From the NCBI GenBank assembly GCA_035495855.1, contig DATJFD010000002.1:13365-77364 (forward strand): DNA of 64,000 bases, in the 5' to 3' direction. This document shows, piece after piece, positions 16,316 through 52,316 of the stretch (positions within the stretch are counted from its first letter, which is position 1; every line of letters begins with the position of its first letter). The notes below the pieces were generated by a model. It saw only the letters and a program-made list of their open reading frames with translations, had not been told where the DNA came from and made no database searches. The DNA comes from Candidatus Binatia bacterium (lineage in GTDB: Bacteria; Patescibacteriota; Patescibacteriia; SG8-24). Position numbers and translations under genes: made by a program.

Positions 16316-17764
16316 ATGATCGTCATGAAGTTCGGCGGCAGTTCCGTCGGGACCGCCGAGGCCATCGGCCAGGTGGCGGGGCTGGTCGAAAGCTACCGCG
16401 AAGAAAAGCCCGTCATCGTCGTTTCAGCCCTCCAGGGCGTCACCGACCGCCTGCTCGCGCTCGCGGACGCGGCGCTCGCGCGCGACCTCGACGCCGTCGA
16501 GGCCGGCCTGGCGCAGCTCCGCAGCCGCCATCGCGAGACCGCCATCGGCGCGGCGGGGGACGACGCCCTCGCCTGCCTCGCGCGCATCGACGCGCTCATG
16601 GGCGAGCTCGGCCACGCGCTGCGCGGCATCGCGGCCCTCGGCGAGCTCTCGCCGCGCTCGCTCGACCTCGTCGTCTCGTTCGGCGAGCGGCTCTCCGCGC
16701 CCATCGTCGCCGCGGCGCTCTCCGCCCGCGGCATCCCCGCGGAGGACGTCGACGCCCGCGCGCTCATCGTCACCGACGACCGCTTCACCTCCGCCGCGGT
16801 GCGCTTCCCGGAGACCGACGCGCGCGTGGCCGCGGCGCTGCCGCCGATGACGGATGCGGGCAAAGTGCCGGTCGTCACCGGTTTCATCGGCGCGACCGAG
16901 GACGGCGTCACGACGACGCTCGGCCGCGGCGGGTCGGACTACAGCGTGGCCATCCTCGCCGGCGCGGTCGGCGCGCGCGAGATCTGGATCTGGAAGGAGG
17001 TCGACGGCGTCATGACCGCGGACCCCGGCACCGTGCCGGACGCGTCGCTGCTCTCGGCCATCAGCTACGACGAAGCCGCCGAGATGTCCTACTTCGGCGC
17101 CAAGGTGCTCCACCCGAAGACGATGATCCCGGCGGTCGAAAGGTCCATCCCCATCAGGATGCGCAACACCTTCCGGCCGGACGCGCCGGGCACGGTCATC
17201 GGCCGCGGCACCGTCGCGTCGCCGCTCGGCGTGAAGGTCGTGACCGCCATCAAGAAGCTCGCCATGGTGACCGTCGAGGGCAAGGGGATGATGGGCATGG
17301 CCGGGTTCGCGGCGCAGGTGCTCGGCGTCGCCGGCCGGCGCGGCATCAACGTCATCATGTTCAGCCAGTCTTCGTCCGAGCAGAACATCTGCCTCGTCAC
17401 CGGCGCCAAGGACGGCCACCGCTTCAAGGCCGAGCTCGAGCGCGAACTGCGCGAAGAACTTTCGCAGCGGCTCATCGACCGTATCACCGTCGAGGACGGC
17501 GTCGCCGCGGTCGCGGTCGTGGGCGAAGGCATGAAGGGCGCGCCCGGCGTGGCCGCGCGGCTGTTCGGCGCGGTCGCGGAGGCGAACGTGAACATCCTCG
17601 CCATCGCGCAAGGATCGTCCGAGCGCAACATCTCGTTCGTGGTCCGCGAGGCCGACGCCGACGCCGCGGTGCGCGAGGTCCACAAGGCCTTCGGCCTGCA
17701 TGATTTGGCCCCCAAGACCACGGCCAAAGCCTCGAAGCTCGAAGCTAGAAGCTCGCAGCTATGA
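16316..17764 (+). CDS. ask: aspartate kinase
   Basis: MIVMKFGGSSVGT..., GRGGSDYS and C-terminal ACT-like repeats. Confidence 0.9.
   Translation: MIVMKFGGSSVGTAEAIGQVAGLVESYREEKPVIVVSALQGVTDRLLALADAALARDLDAVEAGLAQLRSRHRETAIGAAGDDALACLARIDALMGELGHALRGIAALGELSPRSLDLVVSFGERLSAPIVAAALSARGIPAEDVDARALIVTDDRFTSAAVRFPETDARVAAALPPMTDAGKVPVVTGFIGATEDGVTTTLGRGGSDYSVAILAGAVGAREIWIWKEVDGVMTADPGTVPDASLLSAISYDEAAEMSYFGAKVLHPKTMIPAVERSIPIRMRNTFRPDAPGTVIGRGTVASPLGVKVVTAIKKLAMVTVEGKGMMGMAGFAAQVLGVAGRRGINVIMFSQSSSEQNICLVTGAKDGHRFKAELERELREELSQRLIDRITVEDGVAAVAVVGEGMKGAPGVAARLFGAVAEANVNILAIAQGSSERNISFVVREADADAAVREVHKAFGLHDLAPKTTAKASKLEARSSQL
17727..17760 (+). repeat. GCTCRAA heptamer array inside the ask 3' end, abutting the hom ATG
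   Basis: AAGCCTC GAAGCTC GAAGCTA GAAGCTC GCAGCT followed by ATG. Confidence 0.7.
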
Positions 17765-18849
17765 AACTCGTCCCCATCGCCGTCATCGGCAAAGGCAACG
17801 TCGGCAAGGCCTTCCTGCGGCAGGTCGCGGAGGCCCGGCCCAGGTTCCGCGAGCGCGGGCTCGACCTGCGCGTCACCGCCGTGGTCGGCAAGAGCGCCGG
17901 CCTCTACGTGCAGGGCGGGATCCCCGACGCGACCATCGAGGACCTCGCGAACGGCCGCGCGAAGATCGAGAAGACGAGGACCGGCGATGGTCCCGCGGGC
18001 GGCTGGGACGAGGTCACCGCCAACATCGCCGCGGCCGGCGCGCTCGGCCAGGTCGTCGTCGACGCCACGGCCGAGGACGACGCGCGCGTGCACGCGGAAT
18101 GGCTGAAACGCGGCTGGAACGTCGTCACCGCGAACAAGCGGCCGATCACGGGACCGCTCCTGCATTACGACGCCATCCTCGCCGGACGCGACCGTCCCGA
18201 AGCGCCTGGCTACCGCTACGAAGCGACGGTCGGCGCGGGACTGCCGATCATCTCGACGCTCCAGGACATGCTGGCCACCGGCGACGAGGTCATCGAGGTC
18301 AGGGCCGCGGTCTCCGGCACGCTCGGGTTCCTGTTCTCCTCGTGCGAGGAGGGCGTGCCGTTCTCTGCGGCGGTGGCGGAGGCGAAGTCGCGCGGCTACA
18401 CCGAGCCCGACCCGCGTGAGGACCTCTCCGGCGCGGACGTCGCCCGCAAGGCGCTCATCCTCGCCCGGCTGTTCGGCCAGCGCAAGGAATTGAAAGATAT
18501 TCCCGCCGAGAGCCTCGTGCCGCCGGAGCTCGAAGGCGCGACCGTCGAAGAGTTCCTGCGCGAGCTCGGCGGGCACAGCCGCGCGATCGACGATCGCTTC
18601 CGCGCCGTGGCGCGGCGCAAGCACACGCTGCGCTACCTCATGGCCGTCACGCCCTCCGACGTACGCGTCGGCATCGAGGAAGTCCCGGTCGGGACGGCCT
18701 TCGGCGCGCGCAAAGGCCCCGAGAACATGTTCATCATCCGGACGCGGCGCTACAACGCGCTGCCGCTCGTCATCCGCGGCCCCGGCGCGGGCGCCGAGGT
18801 CACCGCGGCCGGCATCTTCGCCGACGTCCTTCGCATCATCAGGCATTGA
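17761..18849 (+). CDS. hom: homoserine dehydrogenase
   Basis: VIGKGNVGKAF Rossmann motif with conserved VVTANK and EPDPREDLSGADVARK. Its ATGA overlaps the ask stop. Confidence 0.85.
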   Translation: MKLVPIAVIGKGNVGKAFLRQVAEARPRFRERGLDLRVTAVVGKSAGLYVQGGIPDATIEDLANGRAKIEKTRTGDGPAGGWDEVTANIAAAGALGQVVVDATAEDDARVHAEWLKRGWNVVTANKRPITGPLLHYDAILAGRDRPEAPGYRYEATVGAGLPIISTLQDMLATGDEVIEVRAAVSGTLGFLFSSCEEGVPFSAAVAEAKSRGYTEPDPREDLSGADVARKALILARLFGQRKELKDIPAESLVPPELEGATVEEFLRELGGHSRAIDDRFRAVARRKHTLRYLMAVTPSDVRVGIEEVPVGTAFGARKGPENMFIIRTRRYNALPLVIRGPGAGAEVTAAGIFADVLRIIRH

Positions 18850-23135: not shown

Positions 23136-23219
23136 GAGTACCCAGTACTCAGTACTCAGTAAACAGAGGTCGGCGTCGATTCTGTGTACTGTGTACTGAG
23201 TACTGTTTACCGTGTACTC
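23136..23219. repeat. heptamer-word palindrome (GTACTCA/GTAAACA words)
   Basis: Lies in a divergent intergenic region. Uses the same word family as 53756-53830. Confidence 0.7.
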
Positions 23220-23227
23220 GCCCGTCC

Positions 23228-23236
23228 TGCTATAAT
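23228..23236 (+). promoter_or_regulatory. extended -10 box TGcTATAAT, 6 nt upstream of ATG 23243 (leaderless-type)
   Basis: Read directly. No Shine-Dalgarno is possible in the 6-nt gap. Confidence 0.5.
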
Positions 23237-23242
23237 CGTCCC

Positions 23243-23572
23243 ATGAGCAAGAAGTGCGGCGTCGACCGCGAGAACGCCATCATGTACCTCAAGGACGTCG
23301 AGCCGTTGTGGCGCGCTTTCTGGCTGCACATGCACCTGATGGCCAAGAACCTCCGCGAGTTCGGCGAGGGGCTGGCCACGGTGAGCGACGACGTCTTCGC
23401 CTACCACGTGAGCGGACAGAAGAACGACCTCAGCCGCTGGGTGCAGGAAGTGATCGGCGACGCCTCGCTGGCCGAGGACCTGCGCACCGTGAAGGACCAG
23501 CGCGAGGCCTCCCGCATCGTCCTCGACCGCGTGGCCGAGCTCGAGCTCGCGGCGGCCGGAAGGGCCGCTTGA
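23243..23572 (+). CDS. hypothetical protein (pattern reminiscent of DUF5752, not verified)
   Basis: 109 aa with GC3-rich codons. FAYHVSGQKNDLSRWVQEVIGD pattern. Confidence 0.5.
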   Translation: MSKKCGVDRENAIMYLKDVEPLWRAFWLHMHLMAKNLREFGEGLATVSDDVFAYHVSGQKNDLSRWVQEVIGDASLAEDLRTVKDQREASRIVLDRVAELELAAAGRAA

Positions 23573-39288: not shown

Positions 39289-39346
39289 CCGCGACGAAAA
39301 GAAAAACGCGGCTTCGGCCGCGTTTTGAGTTTCTCGCGTCTTTGAA

Positions 39347-39378
39347 CCTCGGAGCTCGAAGCTTGGCGCTCGAAGCTC
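39347..39378 (+). repeat. GCTCRAA-type heptamer array
   Basis: CGGAGCTC GAAGCTT GGCGCTC GAAGCTC. Confidence 0.6.
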
Positions 39379-39721
39379 ACCCGCGCAGATCGATCACCTC
39401 GACCTTGGCCGGGTCGTACGTGACCTCCGCCAATGTCGCGAAGAAGTCGAGCGCGGCGGTGATTGCCGTTCGCACGCGTTCCGGAGCGTCGGGGAGCTCG
39501 CAGCGCTGGCAGCCGAGGCGGCCGGGCTCCTTCTCCTCGATGGTCACATGGACCTTGCCGCCGGTGCGCATCGCTTCCGCGATCGCGCCCGCGTAGTCCC
39601 GCCAGCGCGGATATTCGGGGTTGAGCGGCGCGCCCGGCTGTTCGAGCAGCGCCCTGCCGAGTTCGAGCATCCCGAGCTCGACGATGACGTTGTGCCTGCC
39701 TTCTTGTCCGTAGAAGAACAT
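39377..39721 (-). CDS. hypothetical protein
   Basis: 114 aa starting at MFFYGQEG, with AAGGA upstream. Confidence 0.45.
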   Translation of the reverse strand: MFFYGQEGRHNVIVELGMLELGRALLEQPGAPLNPEYPRWRDYAGAIAEAMRTGGKVHVTIEEKEPGRLGCQRCELPDAPERVRTAITAALDFFATLAEVTYDPAKVEVIDLRG

Positions 39722-46517: not shown

Positions 46518-46565
46518 AGCTTCGAGCGCCGAGCTTCGAGCTTGAAGCTCGGAGCTTGGCGCTTT
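46518..46565. repeat. inverted pair of GCTCGAA-type heptamer arrays
   Basis: AGCTTCGAGCGCCGAGCTTCGAGCTT / GAAGCTCGGAGCTTGGCGCT. Confidence 0.6.
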
Positions 46566-48106: not shown

Positions 48107-49273
48107 CTAAGGATGTCGCTGCCGCGCGAGGCGCGCGTGCGAGCCGGGGATGCCCTCGCCCGCGAGCGCGAGCAGGGCGGCGAAGTTCTGCGCCAGCCCC
48201 GCGGCGGCCATGAGGCCGGCGAGATCGGCGGCGTCCTTCACGCCCATGAGCTTGCGGCAGAACGCCGCGGTCGGATGGCCGGTCGCGCCGCCGACGGTCC
48301 CGATGGGGAGCCGGAGCTCGAGCCTGCCGCGCACCTCGCCTTCGCCCGCGGCCTCGTAGGCCGTGAGCGGCCTGTACCCGCAGGCCGTCGCCGCGGACGC
48401 GTGGACGCAGGCCTCGATGGCGCGCGTGTCCTGGCCGGTCGCGAGCGCGATGGCCGAGACCGCGTTCATCACGCCCTTGTTGTGCGTCACGGCGCGCGTC
48501 GCGTCGTGTGCGGCCCAGACCTGGAGGTCGAGCACCCTCTGCGGGAGCGCCGCGGCGCCCGGCGCGCGGAACGTCGCTTCGGCGACGACGGGGAAGCCGG
48601 CGTCGTCGTTGCAACAGATGACCGCGGTCGGCCGCGCGTCGGTGAAGAGCCTGAGCAGCCGGTCGGCCGCGCGCTCCGCGATGCGGGTCACGACGTTCGC
48701 GCCCATGGCGTCGCCGGTGCCGATCTCGAGCTCCACGATGATGAGCGTGTCGCGGTCGCCGGGGACGAAGCGCGGCTCGAGCACCTTGAGAGCGCCGCCG
48801 TGCTTGGCCATCGGATTGCATTCCGCGGCGAGCAGGTCCTCGATGTGGGACCTCCAGGCGCGCAGCTTGGCGAGCGCTGCCGGCGGATCAGCGAGCCGCG
48901 CGTACAGTATCTGCGCCCTGGTCCGCGCCTTGCCGACCGTGACGGTGATGCCGCCGTCGGCGAGCTTCGCTGCCTTCGACGCCGCGGCGATGACCGAACG
49001 TTCTTCGGTCGCCATGGCGATGAGCCGCGGCTCGCCGTTCACGACGAAGTTCGTGGCGAGGCCGAGCGGCACCGGAAAGGCGCCGATGCAGTTCTCGATC
49101 ATGGCATCGAACGCCATCGCCAGCTTCTCCGGCGTGTGGTTCAGGATGCCGTAGACGTCCGGTGACGCGAGGTCGAGCCGGTAGAGCTCCGTCATGCGCC
49201 GCGCCGGGGACATCCCCCGGAGCTTGAGCGCGTGGCGGGCGGGAAAAGAACGGGGTTGCGAGGAGTCGGACAT
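48107..49273 (-). CDS. mvaA: class II hydroxymethylglutaryl-CoA reductase
   Basis: IENCIG, ATEERSVIAA, GDAMGANVV and IGTVGG motifs. AAGGAGGA lies upstream of the ATG. Confidence 0.8.
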   Translation of the reverse strand: MSDSSQPRSFPARHALKLRGMSPARRMTELYRLDLASPDVYGILNHTPEKLAMAFDAMIENCIGAFPVPLGLATNFVVNGEPRLIAMATEERSVIAAASKAAKLADGGITVTVGKARTRAQILYARLADPPAALAKLRAWRSHIEDLLAAECNPMAKHGGALKVLEPRFVPGDRDTLIIVELEIGTGDAMGANVVTRIAERAADRLLRLFTDARPTAVICCNDDAGFPVVAEATFRAPGAAALPQRVLDLQVWAAHDATRAVTHNKGVMNAVSAIALATGQDTRAIEACVHASAATACGYRPLTAYEAAGEGEVRGRLELRLPIGTVGGATGHPTAAFCRKLMGVKDAADLAGLMAAAGLAQNFAALLALAGEGIPGSHARLARQRHP

Positions 49274-49375
49274 GCGTTCCTCCTTGAAGTTGCACATCGT
49301 GCGCCCTTCCGCCGGGTTCGACCCGACGTCGGAACGTAGCACCGGCCTACCTGAGCGTCAAACGGCGCGCGGTCG

Positions 49376-49520
49376 TTTTCTAGACCCTGAAACAAGTTCA
49401 GGGTGACATTTTTTCTGGACCCCGCATCACGTGCGGGGTGACATTCTTTTGTCATGCTGGACTTGTTTCAGCATCCAGAAAAAAATGTCACCCCGGCCCG
49501 CGAGCCGGGGTCCATAAAAA
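49376..49520. repeat. REP/BIME-like hairpin cluster 2 (4 units: 2 inverted, 2 direct)
   Basis: Units have TGTCACCC/TGTCATGC ... GGGTCCAGAAAAA flanks with three stem types. Confidence 0.75.
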
Positions 49521-49526
49521 ATCGCC

Positions 49527-49563
49527 CGAAGCTCGAAGCTCAAAGCTCGCAGCTCGAAGCTCC
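49527..49563 (+). repeat. GCTCRAA heptamer array (5 units)
   Basis: GAAGCTC GAAGCTC AAAGCTC GCAGCTC GAAGCTC. Confidence 0.7.
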
Positions 49564-49595
49564 AAAAAGAAAAACCCCGGCGGAGCGCCGGGGCG

Positions 49596-49871
49596 TCATG
49601 AAGAGCCGAAAGGCTTGGAGTCGCGCTTGCGGGCGACGGCCAGGATGCGTTCGAGGTCCTTCTCGTCGCGATAGTCCTCGAGGAGCATCTCGCGGAGCGC
49701 CTGCGCCCCGTCGACGAAGAACTCTGGCGGCAGCTTGCCAGGATCGAGCTGCCCGTCGCGGGCCCGCTCATAGCGGACGAGCTCGAGGAGCTTCTGGATC
49801 TTGGTGAGGCGGCCGAACTTGCGTTTGAAATGCTCGACGCTGTCGCGGCGAGGGTCTTTGCTCGAGGCCAT
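49596..49871 (-). CDS. hypothetical protein (91 aa)
   Basis: Starts at MASSKDPRR. No family recognised. Confidence 0.45.
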   Translation of the reverse strand: MASSKDPRRDSVEHFKRKFGRLTKIQKLLELVRYERARDGQLDPGKLPPEFFVDGAQALREMLLEDYRDEKDLERILAVARKRDSKPFGSS

Positions 49872-50028: not shown

Positions 50029-51312
50029 ATGGACCTCTTCTCCTACAAAGCCAAAGAACAACAAAAGAAGGACGCGCCGCTCGCGGACCGCATGCGACCC
50101 GAGACCCTCGCCGAGTTCGTCGGCCAGGCCGAGGTCGCGGGCGAGGGCAGCGCGCTCCGCAAGCTCATCGAGGGCGACGAGGTCCCGTCGCTCATCCTTT
50201 GGGGCCCGCCCGGCACGGGAAAGACGACGCTCGCGCGCCTCGTCGCCACCCTCACGGCCTCCCGCTTCGTGGCGCTCTCCGCGGTCTCGAGCGGCGTGGC
50301 CGAACTGCGCCAGGTCGTGGCCGAGTCCAAGGACCGGCTGGCGCTCCACGGCACGCGCACCATCGTCTTCGTCGACGAGATCCATCGCTGGAACAAGGCG
50401 CAGCAGGACGCGTTCCTCCCGTACGTCGAGGACGGCACCGTCACGCTCATCGGCGCGACCACCGAGAACCCGTCCTTCGAGGTGAACTCGGCGCTCCTCT
50501 CGCGCTGCCGCGTGTTCGTGCTCGCCAAGCTCGAGGCGGACGACATCGCCGTGCTGCTCCGCCGCGCGGTCGACGACCCCCGCGGCCTGGGCGGGCGCGC
50601 CACCGCGGACGACGACGCCCTCAAGCTCATCGCCGCGGTCGCTGACGGCGACGCCCGGACCGCGCTCAATGCGCTGGAACTCGCGGTCGGCGCGGCCAGA
50701 CCCGCCGCCCCCAAGGCCGGAAAATCCGGCGTCGACGCCCCTGCCCCGAGCGTGGTACACTTGCGTCGCGAGGACGTCGCCAAGGTCCTCAAACGTTCGC
50801 ACTTCCTCTACGACAAGACGGGGGAGGAGCACTACAACATCATCTCGGCGCTGCACAAAAGCATGCGCGGCTCGGACCCCGACGCGGCCCTCTACTGGCT
50901 CGGCCGGATGCTCGAGGCCGGCGAGGACCCGCTCTACGTCGCCCGCCGCCTGGTCCGCTTCGCCTCCGAGGACATCGGCCTCGCCGACCCGCAGGCGCTC
51001 GTGCAGGCCACGGCCGCCTTCCAGGCCGCCCACCAGCTCGGCATGCCCGAGTGCGACGTCTGCCTGGCGCAGGCCGTCGCTTACATGGCCAAGGCGCCGA
51101 AGTCGATCGCCCTCTACGCCGGCTACGGCCGCGTGAAGCGCGACATCGCCGAGTCCGCCAACGACCCCGTGCCCGTCCACCTGCGCAACGCGCCGACGAA
51201 GCTCATGAAGGAGCTCGGCTACGGCAAGGACTATATCTATACGCCCAGCGACCCCGCCGCGCAGCAGGACTTCCTCCCGCCGCGCCTCAAGGGAAAGAAA
51301 TACCTTTCGTAA
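50029..51312 (+). CDS. rarA: replication-associated recombination protein A (AAA+ ATPase)
   Basis: LWGPPGTGKTTLA, VFVDEIHRWNK and the C-terminal MgsA-type region. Confidence 0.9.
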   Translation: MDLFSYKAKEQQKKDAPLADRMRPETLAEFVGQAEVAGEGSALRKLIEGDEVPSLILWGPPGTGKTTLARLVATLTASRFVALSAVSSGVAELRQVVAESKDRLALHGTRTIVFVDEIHRWNKAQQDAFLPYVEDGTVTLIGATTENPSFEVNSALLSRCRVFVLAKLEADDIAVLLRRAVDDPRGLGGRATADDDALKLIAAVADGDARTALNALELAVGAARPAAPKAGKSGVDAPAPSVVHLRREDVAKVLKRSHFLYDKTGEEHYNIISALHKSMRGSDPDAALYWLGRMLEAGEDPLYVARRLVRFASEDIGLADPQALVQATAAFQAAHQLGMPECDVCLAQAVAYMAKAPKSIALYAGYGRVKRDIAESANDPVPVHLRNAPTKLMKELGYGKDYIYTPSDPAAQQDFLPPRLKGKKYLS

Positions 51313-51347
51313 AAAAGCTCAAAGCTCAAAGCTCGCAGCTCAAAGCT
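51313..51347 (+). repeat. GCTCAAA heptamer array abutting ATG 51348
   Basis: AAAGCTC AAAGCTC AAAGCTC GCAGCTC AAAGCT followed by ATG. Confidence 0.7.
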
Positions 51348-52316
51348 ATGAAAAGATACGCGCTCACCATCGCCTTCATCGTCATGCTCGCCGGCGGCGT
51401 GGCGATGAGCCTCATCTACAACCAGAGGCCCGAACGGATCGTGGGCGAGGCGATGCGCAAGCTGCGCGACGCGAATTCGTTCATGGGCGCGGCGACCATC
51501 GCCACCTTCGCGCCGGAACGCATCGTGCAGGCCGCGGGCGCGGACCCGAACCTCGTGCTCCTGCCCATCGTGTTCGTCGGCGAGGTCGGCGTGAACGTGC
51601 CGCCCGGCGGCAAAGTGAGCGGCGACGCGAACTTCGAGCTCATCGGCAGCGACAAGGACAAGCCTGTCACCTTCCACGTCGTCACCGCCGAGGACGGCAC
51701 GTCCTACGTGCGGTTCGAGAACGTCCCCGCGGAGAAGACCTCCGCCAAGGTCGTCGAGGAACTGAACGGCAAATGGTACTCGATGCGCACGCGCGGTCTC
51801 GCCGCGCTCCTCGCCAAGGACGGGGAAGCGACGGCCGACCAGGAGGACCCGAGCGGAAAGCCGGCGGCCGACGCCTGGGAGCGCATCCGGGCGACGGTCT
51901 CGAGCGGCGAGCTGTTCGGGAGGCCGGAGCAGCAGGGCAGGCAGGTCCTCGGCGCGGCGTCCGTGACGAAGTACGAGGTGCCGCTCAGGCGCGAGGCGCT
52001 CGTCGGCCTGGCGCAGGACATCAAGACCATGGTGCGCGGACGCGCGCTCACCGACGAGGAACGCGCGGAGGTCGAGAAGACGATGGCCGACCGCGACGTT
52101 TCGCTGCAGGTCTGGATCGACCGTTCCGCCAAGAAGCTCATGCAGGCGAACCTCGACGTGCGCACGCACGCGGCCGACGAAGGCGGCACCGAGCAGAAGC
52201 CCGCGCTCCTCAGCGTGCTCATGCGGTTCAGCTCCTGGAACGAACCCGTCCCCGTCGAGGCCCCCAAGGACAGCCAGCCTTTCGGCGATCTCATCGAACG
52301 TCTCAAGAAGAAGTAA
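51348..52316 (+). CDS. membrane-anchored hypothetical exported protein
   Basis: Starts at MKRYALTIAFIVMLAGGVAMSLI. The ATG directly abuts a GCTCAAA heptamer array. Confidence 0.55.
   Translation: MKRYALTIAFIVMLAGGVAMSLIYNQRPERIVGEAMRKLRDANSFMGAATIATFAPERIVQAAGADPNLVLLPIVFVGEVGVNVPPGGKVSGDANFELIGSDKDKPVTFHVVTAEDGTSYVRFENVPAEKTSAKVVEELNGKWYSMRTRGLAALLAKDGEATADQEDPSGKPAADAWERIRATVSSGELFGRPEQQGRQVLGAASVTKYEVPLRREALVGLAQDIKTMVRGRALTDEERAEVEKTMADRDVSLQVWIDRSAKKLMQANLDVRTHAADEGGTEQKPALLSVLMRFSSWNEPVPVEAPKDSQPFGDLIERLKKK

Follow-up and report, generated by a model that had tools for sequence, protein, structure and literature searches.

GAAGCTC heptamer arrays at the gene boundaries of a high-GC Patescibacterium: a species-specific repeat burst

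At the boundary between the aspartate kinase gene ask and the homoserine dehydrogenase gene hom, in a 64,000-nucleotide (nt) stretch of contig DATJFD010000002.1 (hereafter the window), a tandem array of GAAGCTC-type heptamers encodes the end of the upstream protein and runs up to the ATG of the downstream gene, which has no Shine-Dalgarno (SD) sequence. This locus raises the question of whether such an array serves as an SD-independent element of initiation or coupling, or whether it is a repeat that has invaded gene boundaries, both of which were proposed in the initial annotation of the window. The host is an ultra-small, high-GC Patescibacterium, the assembly of which (labelled G000) comprises 1.61 Mb in 92 contigs at 66% GC and is ~95% complete. 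The GAAGCTC arrays are a species-specific burst within a known class of bacterial heptamer repeats, and not a demonstrated new translation signal. With moderate confidence, they are considered to be fast-evolving repeats of gene boundaries that are kept only in the orientation harmless to SD-less initiation.

Cyanobacteria, giant sulfur bacteria and Xanthomonas have long been known, for decades in fact, to carry heptamer repeats at gene boundaries; to our knowledge, neither the function of these repeats nor the mechanism that generates them has been established. The genome described here offers a natural experiment, in that a dense and recent burst (37 arrays per 100 kb) stands beside near-array-free congeners that share its genes, its start codons and its low SD use.

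The ask/hom junction

The junction comprises the following features.

16316..17764, plus strand: ask (aspartate kinase), with Pfam AA_kinase at residues 1-284 and ACT_9 at residues 399-459; residues 471-482 are array-encoded
17727..17760, plus strand: lone forward array of ~4.5 GAAGCTC-type units, inside the 3' end of ask, terminating at the hom ATG
17761..17764, plus strand: ATGA overlap of the hom start and the ask stop, read from the sequence
17761..18849, plus strand: hom (homoserine dehydrogenase), with Pfam NAD_binding_3 at residues 10-139 and Homoserine_dh at residues 162-357

In the ask frame, positions 17727-17764 read ...AAA GCC TCG AAG CTC GAA GCT AGA AGC TCG CAG CTA TGA. The 482-residue protein ends in KASKLEARSSQL, which confirms that the array encodes the C-terminal residues of ask, namely residues 471-482; the last ACT domain stops at residue 459. 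Downstream, hom is followed by asd (Pfam). The start codon of hom is supported by an ATG at the equivalent codon in the relatives G003 and G007, and by a Pfam NAD-binding domain that begins at residue 10.

Comparison with relatives, 13 of 40 of which have hom, indicates that the tail of ask is lineage-specific. In the closest congener, G003, the hom product of which is 75% identical, ask ends in ...LHEMKEAVCA and overlaps hom by 8 nt with no array, and AAGGAGG is found 6 nt 5' of the hom ATG. Relative G010 has an ATGA overlap between ask and hom that is array-free as well, and the ask tails of G001 and G002 are unlike the others. After the conserved LH[DE] motif, the tail counts 7 residues in G003 and G010 versus 19 here, so that the array is an insertion of ~36 nt replacing a junction that has an SD in G003. 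A conserved ask tail is ruled out by these differences and by 80 distant ask homologs, with which the alignment reaches only residues 443-474.

At this junction, an array of ~36 nt has replaced an ancestral, SD-bearing junction, adding 12 codons to ask while the ATGA overlap was kept. Because this overlap is retained, termination-reinitiation is the likely route, and hom is presumably still translated in this manner. Slippage by one unit, as a means of fusing ask to hom in frame, was considered and rejected: one additional unit brings a TAG inside the array, and the loss of one unit yields a long out-of-frame tail. No metagenome contig with the hom 5' end was found that would display the ask-hom junction of other strains.

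The second array of the window that directly precedes a start codon occupies a complete intergenic gap.

51313..51347, plus strand: lone forward array of five AAAGCTC/GCAGCTC units, filling the entire TAA-to-ATG gap

Positions 51310-51350 read TAA-AAAAGCTCAAAGCTCAAAGCTCGCAGCTCAAAGCT-ATG, the 35-nt gap being wholly array, between a MgsA/RarA-like gene (50029-51312, Pfam) and coding sequence (CDS) 51348. The G007 homolog of this CDS has its ATG at the equivalent codon, after an array-free gap of 8 nt. Both arrays had been described as abutting the ATG of genes devoid of an SD. The sequence bears this out, both starts are backed by homology, and the predicted pairing of the hom and CDS 51348 leaders with the anti-SD amounts to -2.2 and -0.3 kcal/mol, respectively. 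Neither array folds better than shuffled sequences (z = -1.7 for 17727 and -0.6 for 51313), and for that at 17727, the preceding 220 nt contain no inverted partner (partner score 5).

Placement and spread of the arrays

The five GCTCRAA heptamer arrays described in the window are all real. The program TRF recovers period-7 arrays at 17731-17760 (4.3 copies), 39344-39378 (5.0), 49527-49562 (5.1) and 51314-51347 (4.9), together with two overlapping period-7 arrays of opposite sense at 46518-46564; GCTCRAAGCTC, with at most one mismatch, is found at 22 sites of the window versus 6.0 +/- 2.4 in dinucleotide-preserving shuffles, none of 100 of which reaches 22. Genome-wide, period 7 is the commonest tandem period, represented by 601 arrays, whereas periods 6 and 8 account for 217 and 129, respectively. 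Among 175 heptamer unit types, AAGCTCG, which denotes the GAAGCTC repeat, ranks first (31, plus 24 in reverse), and the arrays of the window thus represent one family of a genome-wide phenomenon.

A scan for GAAGCTC-family arrays of at least three units yielded 79 of them after removal of one contig-end duplicate: 18 have three units, 29 have four and 30 have five, and there is one each of 7, 9 and 12 units. In the GAAGCTC sense, 34 of the 79 end between -2 and +12 nt from the start of a long open reading frame (ORF) with a high GC content at third codon positions (GC3), where 7.6 are expected (p = 7e-15), whereas five lie within the same distance of a start in the reverse sense (orientation contrast, p = 2e-6). 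The start is an ATG in 27 of the 34 cases, and the offsets peak at -1 to +7 nt. Where a forward array has 60 nt or more of free play, the start is no more than 12 nt away in 16 of 34 cases, whereas uniform placement would give 3.0. The association with start codons noticed at two loci of the window therefore extends to the genome, across which the arrays are strongly non-random relative to starts. The two checks that the initial annotation had set, on placement relative to starts and on conservation of the ask tail, thus both speak for its observation.

Chance or an artefact of gene calling might be invoked for this adjacency, as starts were called in-house and as 9.6% of random combinations of intergenic position and strand already fall in the -2 to +12 interval, high-GC ORFs extending upstream. 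However, the observed number exceeds this expectation more than fourfold (34 versus 7.6), and the strong orientation asymmetry is not expected from an artefact. Moreover, among the 14 array-adjacent ATGs testable by homology, which include those of hom and CDS 51348, 9 match at the exact codon and 3 within two codons, so that 12 are confirmed. Together, these results and the placement in long spacers effectively refute this explanation.

The arrays are also found at the other end of genes. Stop codons are followed by reverse arms in 12 cases and by forward arrays in five. The stop often consists of the first three bases of the reverse arm (TAGCTTC...), and the last unit of a forward array often supplies the A of the start codon (GCTA+TG). 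A complementary 5' arm accompanies 13 of the 34 start-adjacent arrays, producing a stop-to-start hairpin, while the other 21, including those upstream of hom and CDS 51348, are lone.

The distribution of the family among relatives argues for a recent invasion. Its pattern GCTCRVRGCTCRVRGCTC matches the host genome 101 times but none of 40 relatives, which include three congeners, and when the pattern is lengthened, matches are restricted to 3 of 400 further genomes in the phylum, with few copies each. The density of period-7 arrays is 37 per 100 kb in the host versus 1.6-11 in nine relatives, these having been sampled at 40-335 kb each. The congener G002 uses SD sequences at 26% and has the same distribution of spacer lengths as the host; long hairpins are present in 3% of its gaps between same-direction genes, versus 25% in the host.

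Gene order shared with G002 makes it possible to follow individual junctions. Among 94 conserved pairs of same-direction genes, many junctions of 9-27 nt in G002 measure 76-105 nt in the host, where they are filled with repeats. Junctions carry an array in 11 of 43 cases when the G002 gap is at most 30 nt (405 nt in total), and in 6 of 21 cases when it exceeds 120 nt (6229 nt in total). Given this equal rate for short and long ancestral gaps, the presence of arrays is tied to junctions and not to the extent of non-coding sequence, suggesting a process that targets gene boundaries. Thus, the proposal that a repeat has been invading gene boundaries is upheld by the absence of the family from 40 relatives, by the array-free ask/hom junction of G003, and by the lengthening of short G002 junctions in the host.

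Array change appears to be ongoing. A metagenome contig of the host species (L301) is 99.8% identical to host contig C5 over 9.8 kb, and of the 18 positions at which they differ, 13 fall within the 5' arm and loop adjoining a 12-unit GAAGCTC array (C5:4608-4640). One of them is an indel of a 7-nt unit, indicating, at this single locus, unit-step change on the time-scale of strains, a polymorphism in unit number that is also typical of slippage-prone simple-sequence repeats and contingency loci; the 12-unit 3' arm is identical in both. Beyond the host, (GAAGCTC)4 or longer arrays are present in at least 120 metagenome contigs (L208-L327), in many of them as longer arrays, and the span of GC contents of these contigs, from 36 to 77%, implies many unrelated organisms; metagenome Ga0196963 alone has dozens, at ~71-73% GC. 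In 77 non-redundant metagenome cases, the arrays after stops are reverse in 23 and forward in 10, and those before starts are forward in five and reverse in none. GAAGCTC arrays of other metagenome organisms reach 10-26 units, versus a ceiling of five here.

The enzymes that generate or mobilize comparable repeats were sought in the assembly. The Y1 transposase (PF01797, RAYT) has no match in the host assembly, and it was found in 8 of 12 relatives searched, yet these 8 lack the arrays. Similarly, reverse transcriptase (PF00078) has no match in the ~95% complete assembly, and its absence from the genome is accordingly probable rather than certain. An origin from REP elements and RAYT or from a retroelement was rejected on the basis that neither enzyme has a match in the assembly.

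The other three arrays of the window are as follows.

39344..39378, minus strand: array of the GAGCTTC type on the strand of the neighbouring gene, beginning within the TGA stop of gene 39377-39721 (minus strand)
46518..46564, no strand: inverted pair, a GAGCTTC-type arm followed by a GAAGCTC-type arm on the plus strand, downstream of tRNA-Pro genes
49527..49562, minus strand: array of the GAGCTTC type on the strand of the neighbouring gene, just past the terminator hairpin 49576-49594 of gene 49596-49871 (minus strand)

The arrays at 39344 and 49527 are antisense to the adjoining minus-strand genes and lie 3' of their stops, not 5' of starts, which the initial annotation overlooked; a two-way terminator (39298-39326) comes after the former. 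The inverted pair at 46518-46564 constitutes a loop-less hairpin of 19 bp (-41.5 kcal/mol, z = -4.4). In the window, Rfam matched only two tRNAs, and nothing at the arrays. A different dispersed repeat, with units such as TTTTCTAGACCCnGAAACAAGTnCAGGGTGACATT and hairpins of the type GGGGTGACA...CCCGG, is present at 49376-49450 and 49460-49520, in the interval separating the 49527 array from the start of gene 48107-49297, and similar blocks occur in long spacers of contig C38. Elsewhere, a (GCAGCTC)4 array at C74:29993-30060 (minus strand) is in frame and directly 5' of a pilin-type G|FTLVE motif, and might be translated within a prepilin leader peptide (AARSSQLAASSG-FTLVE).

Orientation, translation and candidate functions

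Polarity is observed in every heptamer family and tracks gene direction on both strands, also inside single contigs. The counts for four other families are as follows.

AACCTAC, start-adjacent: 17 in the named unit, 8 in its reverse complement
ACTCTCG, start-adjacent: 16 in the named unit, 3 in its reverse complement
AAAGTCG, stop-adjacent: 22 in the named unit, 1 in its reverse complement
ACACAGT, stop-adjacent: 10 in the named unit, 1 in its reverse complement

Replication-strand bias is unlikely to cause this polarity, since single contigs of the fragmented assembly carry both orientations, following gene direction. A rule based on purine/pyrimidine or on A+C composition was rejected by reasoning, as it fails for GAAGCTC, ACTGTGT and ACTTTCG. 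Start-proximal arms are mostly G-poor, and G-poverty fits most families, but it ties for GAAGCTC, the unit of which has two G and two C, so that G content does not explain the polarity of this family.

Depletion of start codons, in contrast, fits GAAGCTC. ATG, GTG and TTG triplets in start-adjacent arrays of all families number 80 as transcribed versus 179 in the reverse complement, and for GAAGCTC and AAAGCTC together they number 5 versus 29. Similarly, SD-like words number 29 as transcribed versus 78 in the reverse complement. Self-folding is weaker as transcribed in 74 cases and stronger in 31 (p = 5e-5), a real but small effect with a mean difference of ~0.8 kcal/mol. As GAAGCTC has no G/C skew and yet obeys the orientation rule, G-richness alone is insufficient as an explanation, and the avoidance of upstream starts provides a testable alternative.

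These observations lead to the reading that we consider probable. A repeat-generating process directed at gene junctions would produce and propagate the arrays, and only those in the orientation that makes a harmless leader, with few upstream ATG, GTG or TTG triplets, few SD-like words and weak self-pairing, would survive. They would be dispensable for initiation, because congeners use the start codons of the same genes without arrays. The observed orientation filter is consistent with the arrays being transcribed as leaders, and leaves room for a translational role.

Whether the arrays are SD sequences in disguise was addressed from the 16S rRNA. Its 3' end (contig C34) is canonical (GGATCACCTCCTTTCT), and pairing was computed against GAUCACCUCCUUUCU. 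SD-like words are found at -18 to -3 in 21-27% of genes, versus 4-12% in control intervals further upstream, and in 15% of array leaders. The mean anti-SD pairing of array leaders is -2.1 kcal/mol, compared with -4.1 for background sequence and -4.8 for all genes, and 23 of 27 array leaders have duplexes of -0.3 to -2.3 kcal/mol. A disguised SD was rejected on these grounds, the 16S 3' end being canonical and leader pairing weaker than background. Where an SD exists, the array ends ahead of it, as in GAAGCTAggagtcacccATG. In the 1486 called genes considered, positions -3 to -1 are rich in C and T (at -1, T 41%, C 39% and A 7%; at -2, C 51%), which may be a start-codon context signal in this SD-poor organism.

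Forward arrays might nonetheless act in cis on translation, as a single-stranded platform for S1, cold-shock, CsrA-like or dedicated proteins, or as a 30S standby site, recruiting ribosomes to SD-less starts as MacGregor proposed for TAACTGA repeats (PMC4679880). The tight, fixed-orientation placement 5' of starts, to which lone arrays in long spacers conform as well, would be expected of such elements, and the leaders have neither room for an SD nor affinity for the anti-SD. The ~35-nt limit of the arrays also corresponds roughly, by our inference, to the upstream part of the 30S binding site. The same placement is known in unrelated phyla (PMC4679880), and the metagenome arrays before starts are all forward (five versus none). 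However, congeners initiate translation of these genes at the equivalent codons in the absence of an array and mostly of an SD, and SD use is equally low in the array-free congener (26%). In addition, the same placement is shared by 175 unit types, which makes a single sequence-specific reader unlikely, the GAAGCTC family is species-specific, and the array merely ends before the SD where there is one. An SD-independent initiation or coupling element, as the initial annotation had suggested, is thus neither demonstrated nor required, and such a function for the forward arrays is regarded as unlikely.

A related proposal makes the paired form the functional unit: a stop-to-start RNA hairpin would bring the two codons together for reinitiation, or would be cut by RNase III to leave a near-leaderless mRNA, lone arrays being remnants or precursors. 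The hairpins have their bases flush with stop and start, TAG often opening the 5' arm and GCTA+TG closing the last unit, and they are inserted where congener gaps measure 9-27 nt. Leaderless starts also appear to exist in the clade, as judged from a TATAAT 6 nt before an ATG (23231-23245) and from further examples in G002, and heptamer palindromes enclose both genes of the 23S_rRNA_IVP family (PF05635) in their loops, one palindrome reaching from a stop to the next start. In contrast, mismatches are strand-symmetric, with 174 G.U and 179 A.C, across 172 long, ungapped inverted repeats located in gaps between same-direction genes, and thus give no sign of selection for RNA pairing. Furthermore, 21 of the 34 start-adjacent GAAGCTC arrays have no partner, both flagged cases among them, and lone arrays fold no better than shuffles. 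Selected RNA structure is therefore rejected for the lone arrays, by their folding scores, and unsupported for the hairpins, and a functional hairpin unit is quite improbable.

The two IVP genes, at C59:15700-16480 and C31:1-830, are enclosed by palindromes of other unit families, and that of C31 begins at a TAG stop and ends 6 nt 5' of the next gene's ATG. None of the GAAGCTC copies holds an ORF. Over 10 sampled genomes, the number of IVP genes correlates with the density of period-7 plus period-8 repeats (Spearman 0.71, p = 0.02, ignoring phylogeny).

The TATAAT at 23231-23245, 6 nt 5' of an ATG, belongs to a composite arrangement. At 23137-23245 of the window and at ~1374-1484 of contig C60, the 3' arm of a hairpin of the AGTACxC/ACTGTGT family is followed by the conserved module GTACTCGyCCGTCCTGCTATAmT (23218-23242 in the window), the TATAAT-like box of which lies 6-8 nt 5' of an ATG. 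From its sequence, this module looks like a promoter of leaderless mRNAs that adjoins the repeat element or is part of it. In contig C3 of the array-free congener G002 (L125-L141), a TAnAAT-like box, as in ctacaatgggcctgtATG, lies 6-9 nt 5' of the ATG of many operon-opening genes, and leaderless initiation therefore seems common in the clade.

A role at the level of DNA, in which the arrays would be sites for transcription factors or nucleoid proteins, promoter spacers, or recombination or replication signals, would make their proximity to starts a matter of promoter geometry. Heptad direct repeats bind regulators elsewhere, as described for TTTTGAT upstream of ctxAB, and another heptamer family of the host precedes the promoter-like module ...GTACTCGyCCGTCCTGCTATAmT. 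However, a -10 box would not fit between a GAAGCTC array and the ATG, which are only 0-7 nt apart, and many arrays are intra-operonic, with stop and start 30-100 nt apart, or lie inside ask. Their polarity tracks gene direction, which double-stranded binding sites do not need, and a DNA-level role is accordingly very improbable.

Several points nevertheless weigh against boundary repeats that are simply filtered for a harmless orientation. A neutral or selfish origin fails to explain why lone arrays lie within a few nt of a start even in long spacers, why tiny gaps were struck as often as long ones, and why array length has a sharp ceiling of five units (~35 nt); these three features would also fit positive selection on leaders or a targeted insertion machine. 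The generating enzyme was not found by the searches for Y1 transposase and reverse transcriptase. The orientation filter keeps leaders clear of false starts and SD-like words, a conclusion that we infer from correlation. Finally, the gene calls come from a simple in-house caller based on GC3 and codon usage (1536 genes, 86% coding), and the homology check of array-adjacent starts was limited to 14 of them and used DNA fetched from relatives.

A broader proposal would unite these elements by making the arrays functional components of translation without SD sequences. In the forward arrays, selection would have favoured leaders devoid of starts and structure, and hairpins would be cassettes resembling intervening sequences, some with an IVP gene, that hold the terminating ribosome by the next start or are cut by RNase III to yield near-leaderless operon mRNAs. 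The units would turn over while the design persists in Patescibacteria, cyanobacteria, Beggiatoaceae and Xanthomonas. We regard this as a speculative scheme with a rather low probability.

The arrays also matter for annotation, as the stop-free GAAGCTC arrays can lengthen upstream ORFs, as in the tail of ask, and mislead start prediction in Patescibacteria.

Comparison with known repeat systems

TAACTGA repeats, which are known from marine Beggiatoaceae and from some Cyanobacteria and Bacteroidetes, resemble the GAAGCTC arrays in several respects (PMC4679880). In the 'Maribeggiatoa' genome, 169 TAACTGA sets were described, mostly forward and directly 5' of starts, the largest class ending 1 nt upstream (MacGregor 2015; PMC4679880). 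These sets overlap the site where the ribosome would be expected to bind, SD use in that genome is ~25%, and binding of S1, Csp or CsrA was suggested (PMC4679880). Like TAACTGA, with its 2-6 copies per set, GAAGCTC forms short tandem runs of 7 nt, forward and 5' of starts, where canonical SD sequences are rare. TAACTGA sets likewise overlap the end of the upstream ORF in some cases, differ by indels in 7-nt steps between related strains, and have a patchy phylogenetic distribution (PMC4679880). In contrast, GAAGCTC has no stop in any frame of its consensus and is translated as ...EARSS.. in ask, whereas TAACTGA stops all three frames. The present host has dozens of coexisting unit families, whereas heptamers related to TAACTGA rarely or never form direct repeats in its genome, and ~40% of the start-adjacent arrays are arms of inverted pairs, compared with a single indirect repeat in the TAACTGA genome. 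The host, a high-GC Patescibacterium, is itself unlike those of TAACTGA.

The GGGAATC and GGGGAYT repeats of Xanthomonas and Nostoc are enriched between genes, and many of them are arranged as convergent inverted pairs with the potential for stem-loops (Rehm et al. 2015; PMC4692102). In Xanthomonas, they obey a strand rule, by which the G-rich strand is on the coding strand after or overlapping stops and its complement precedes starts (PMC4692102). Convergent pairs are found here as well, 13 of the 34 start-adjacent arrays having a 5' arm, and the strand rule is shared by all families of the host. Unlike GGGAATC, GAAGCTC has no G-runs and is unable to form a G-quadruplex, and its arrays are short (mostly at most five units). 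The Xanthomonas repeats are also largely conserved between species, whereas the GAAGCTC family is absent from congeners.

The STRR (short tandemly repeated repetitive) sequences of cyanobacteria are dispersed tandem heptamers of several unit types and lineage-specific, as are the repeats of the host; we know of no report of strict placement at start codons for them. STRR differ from the GAAGCTC arrays in their units and in the GC content of their hosts. In a sample of Microcystis heptamer sets, orientations were mixed (PMC4679880). No literature on such heptamer repeats in the Candidate Phyla Radiation was found.

The REP, BIME and REPIN elements share with the repeats of the host their small size, species specificity, palindromic character and intergenic location at gene ends, often within operons. 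Unlike REP and REPIN, which consist of one conserved imperfect palindrome per family, with a conserved head tetranucleotide, and are mobilized by RAYT, the arms found here are tandem heptamers of 175 types, their loops are variable and lone arrays are common. Finally, the hairpins of the host resemble the intervening sequences of 23S rRNA, in which a stem made of complementary ends encloses a loop that may hold an IVP gene; unlike these, the cassettes of the host lie between protein-coding genes and not in rRNA.

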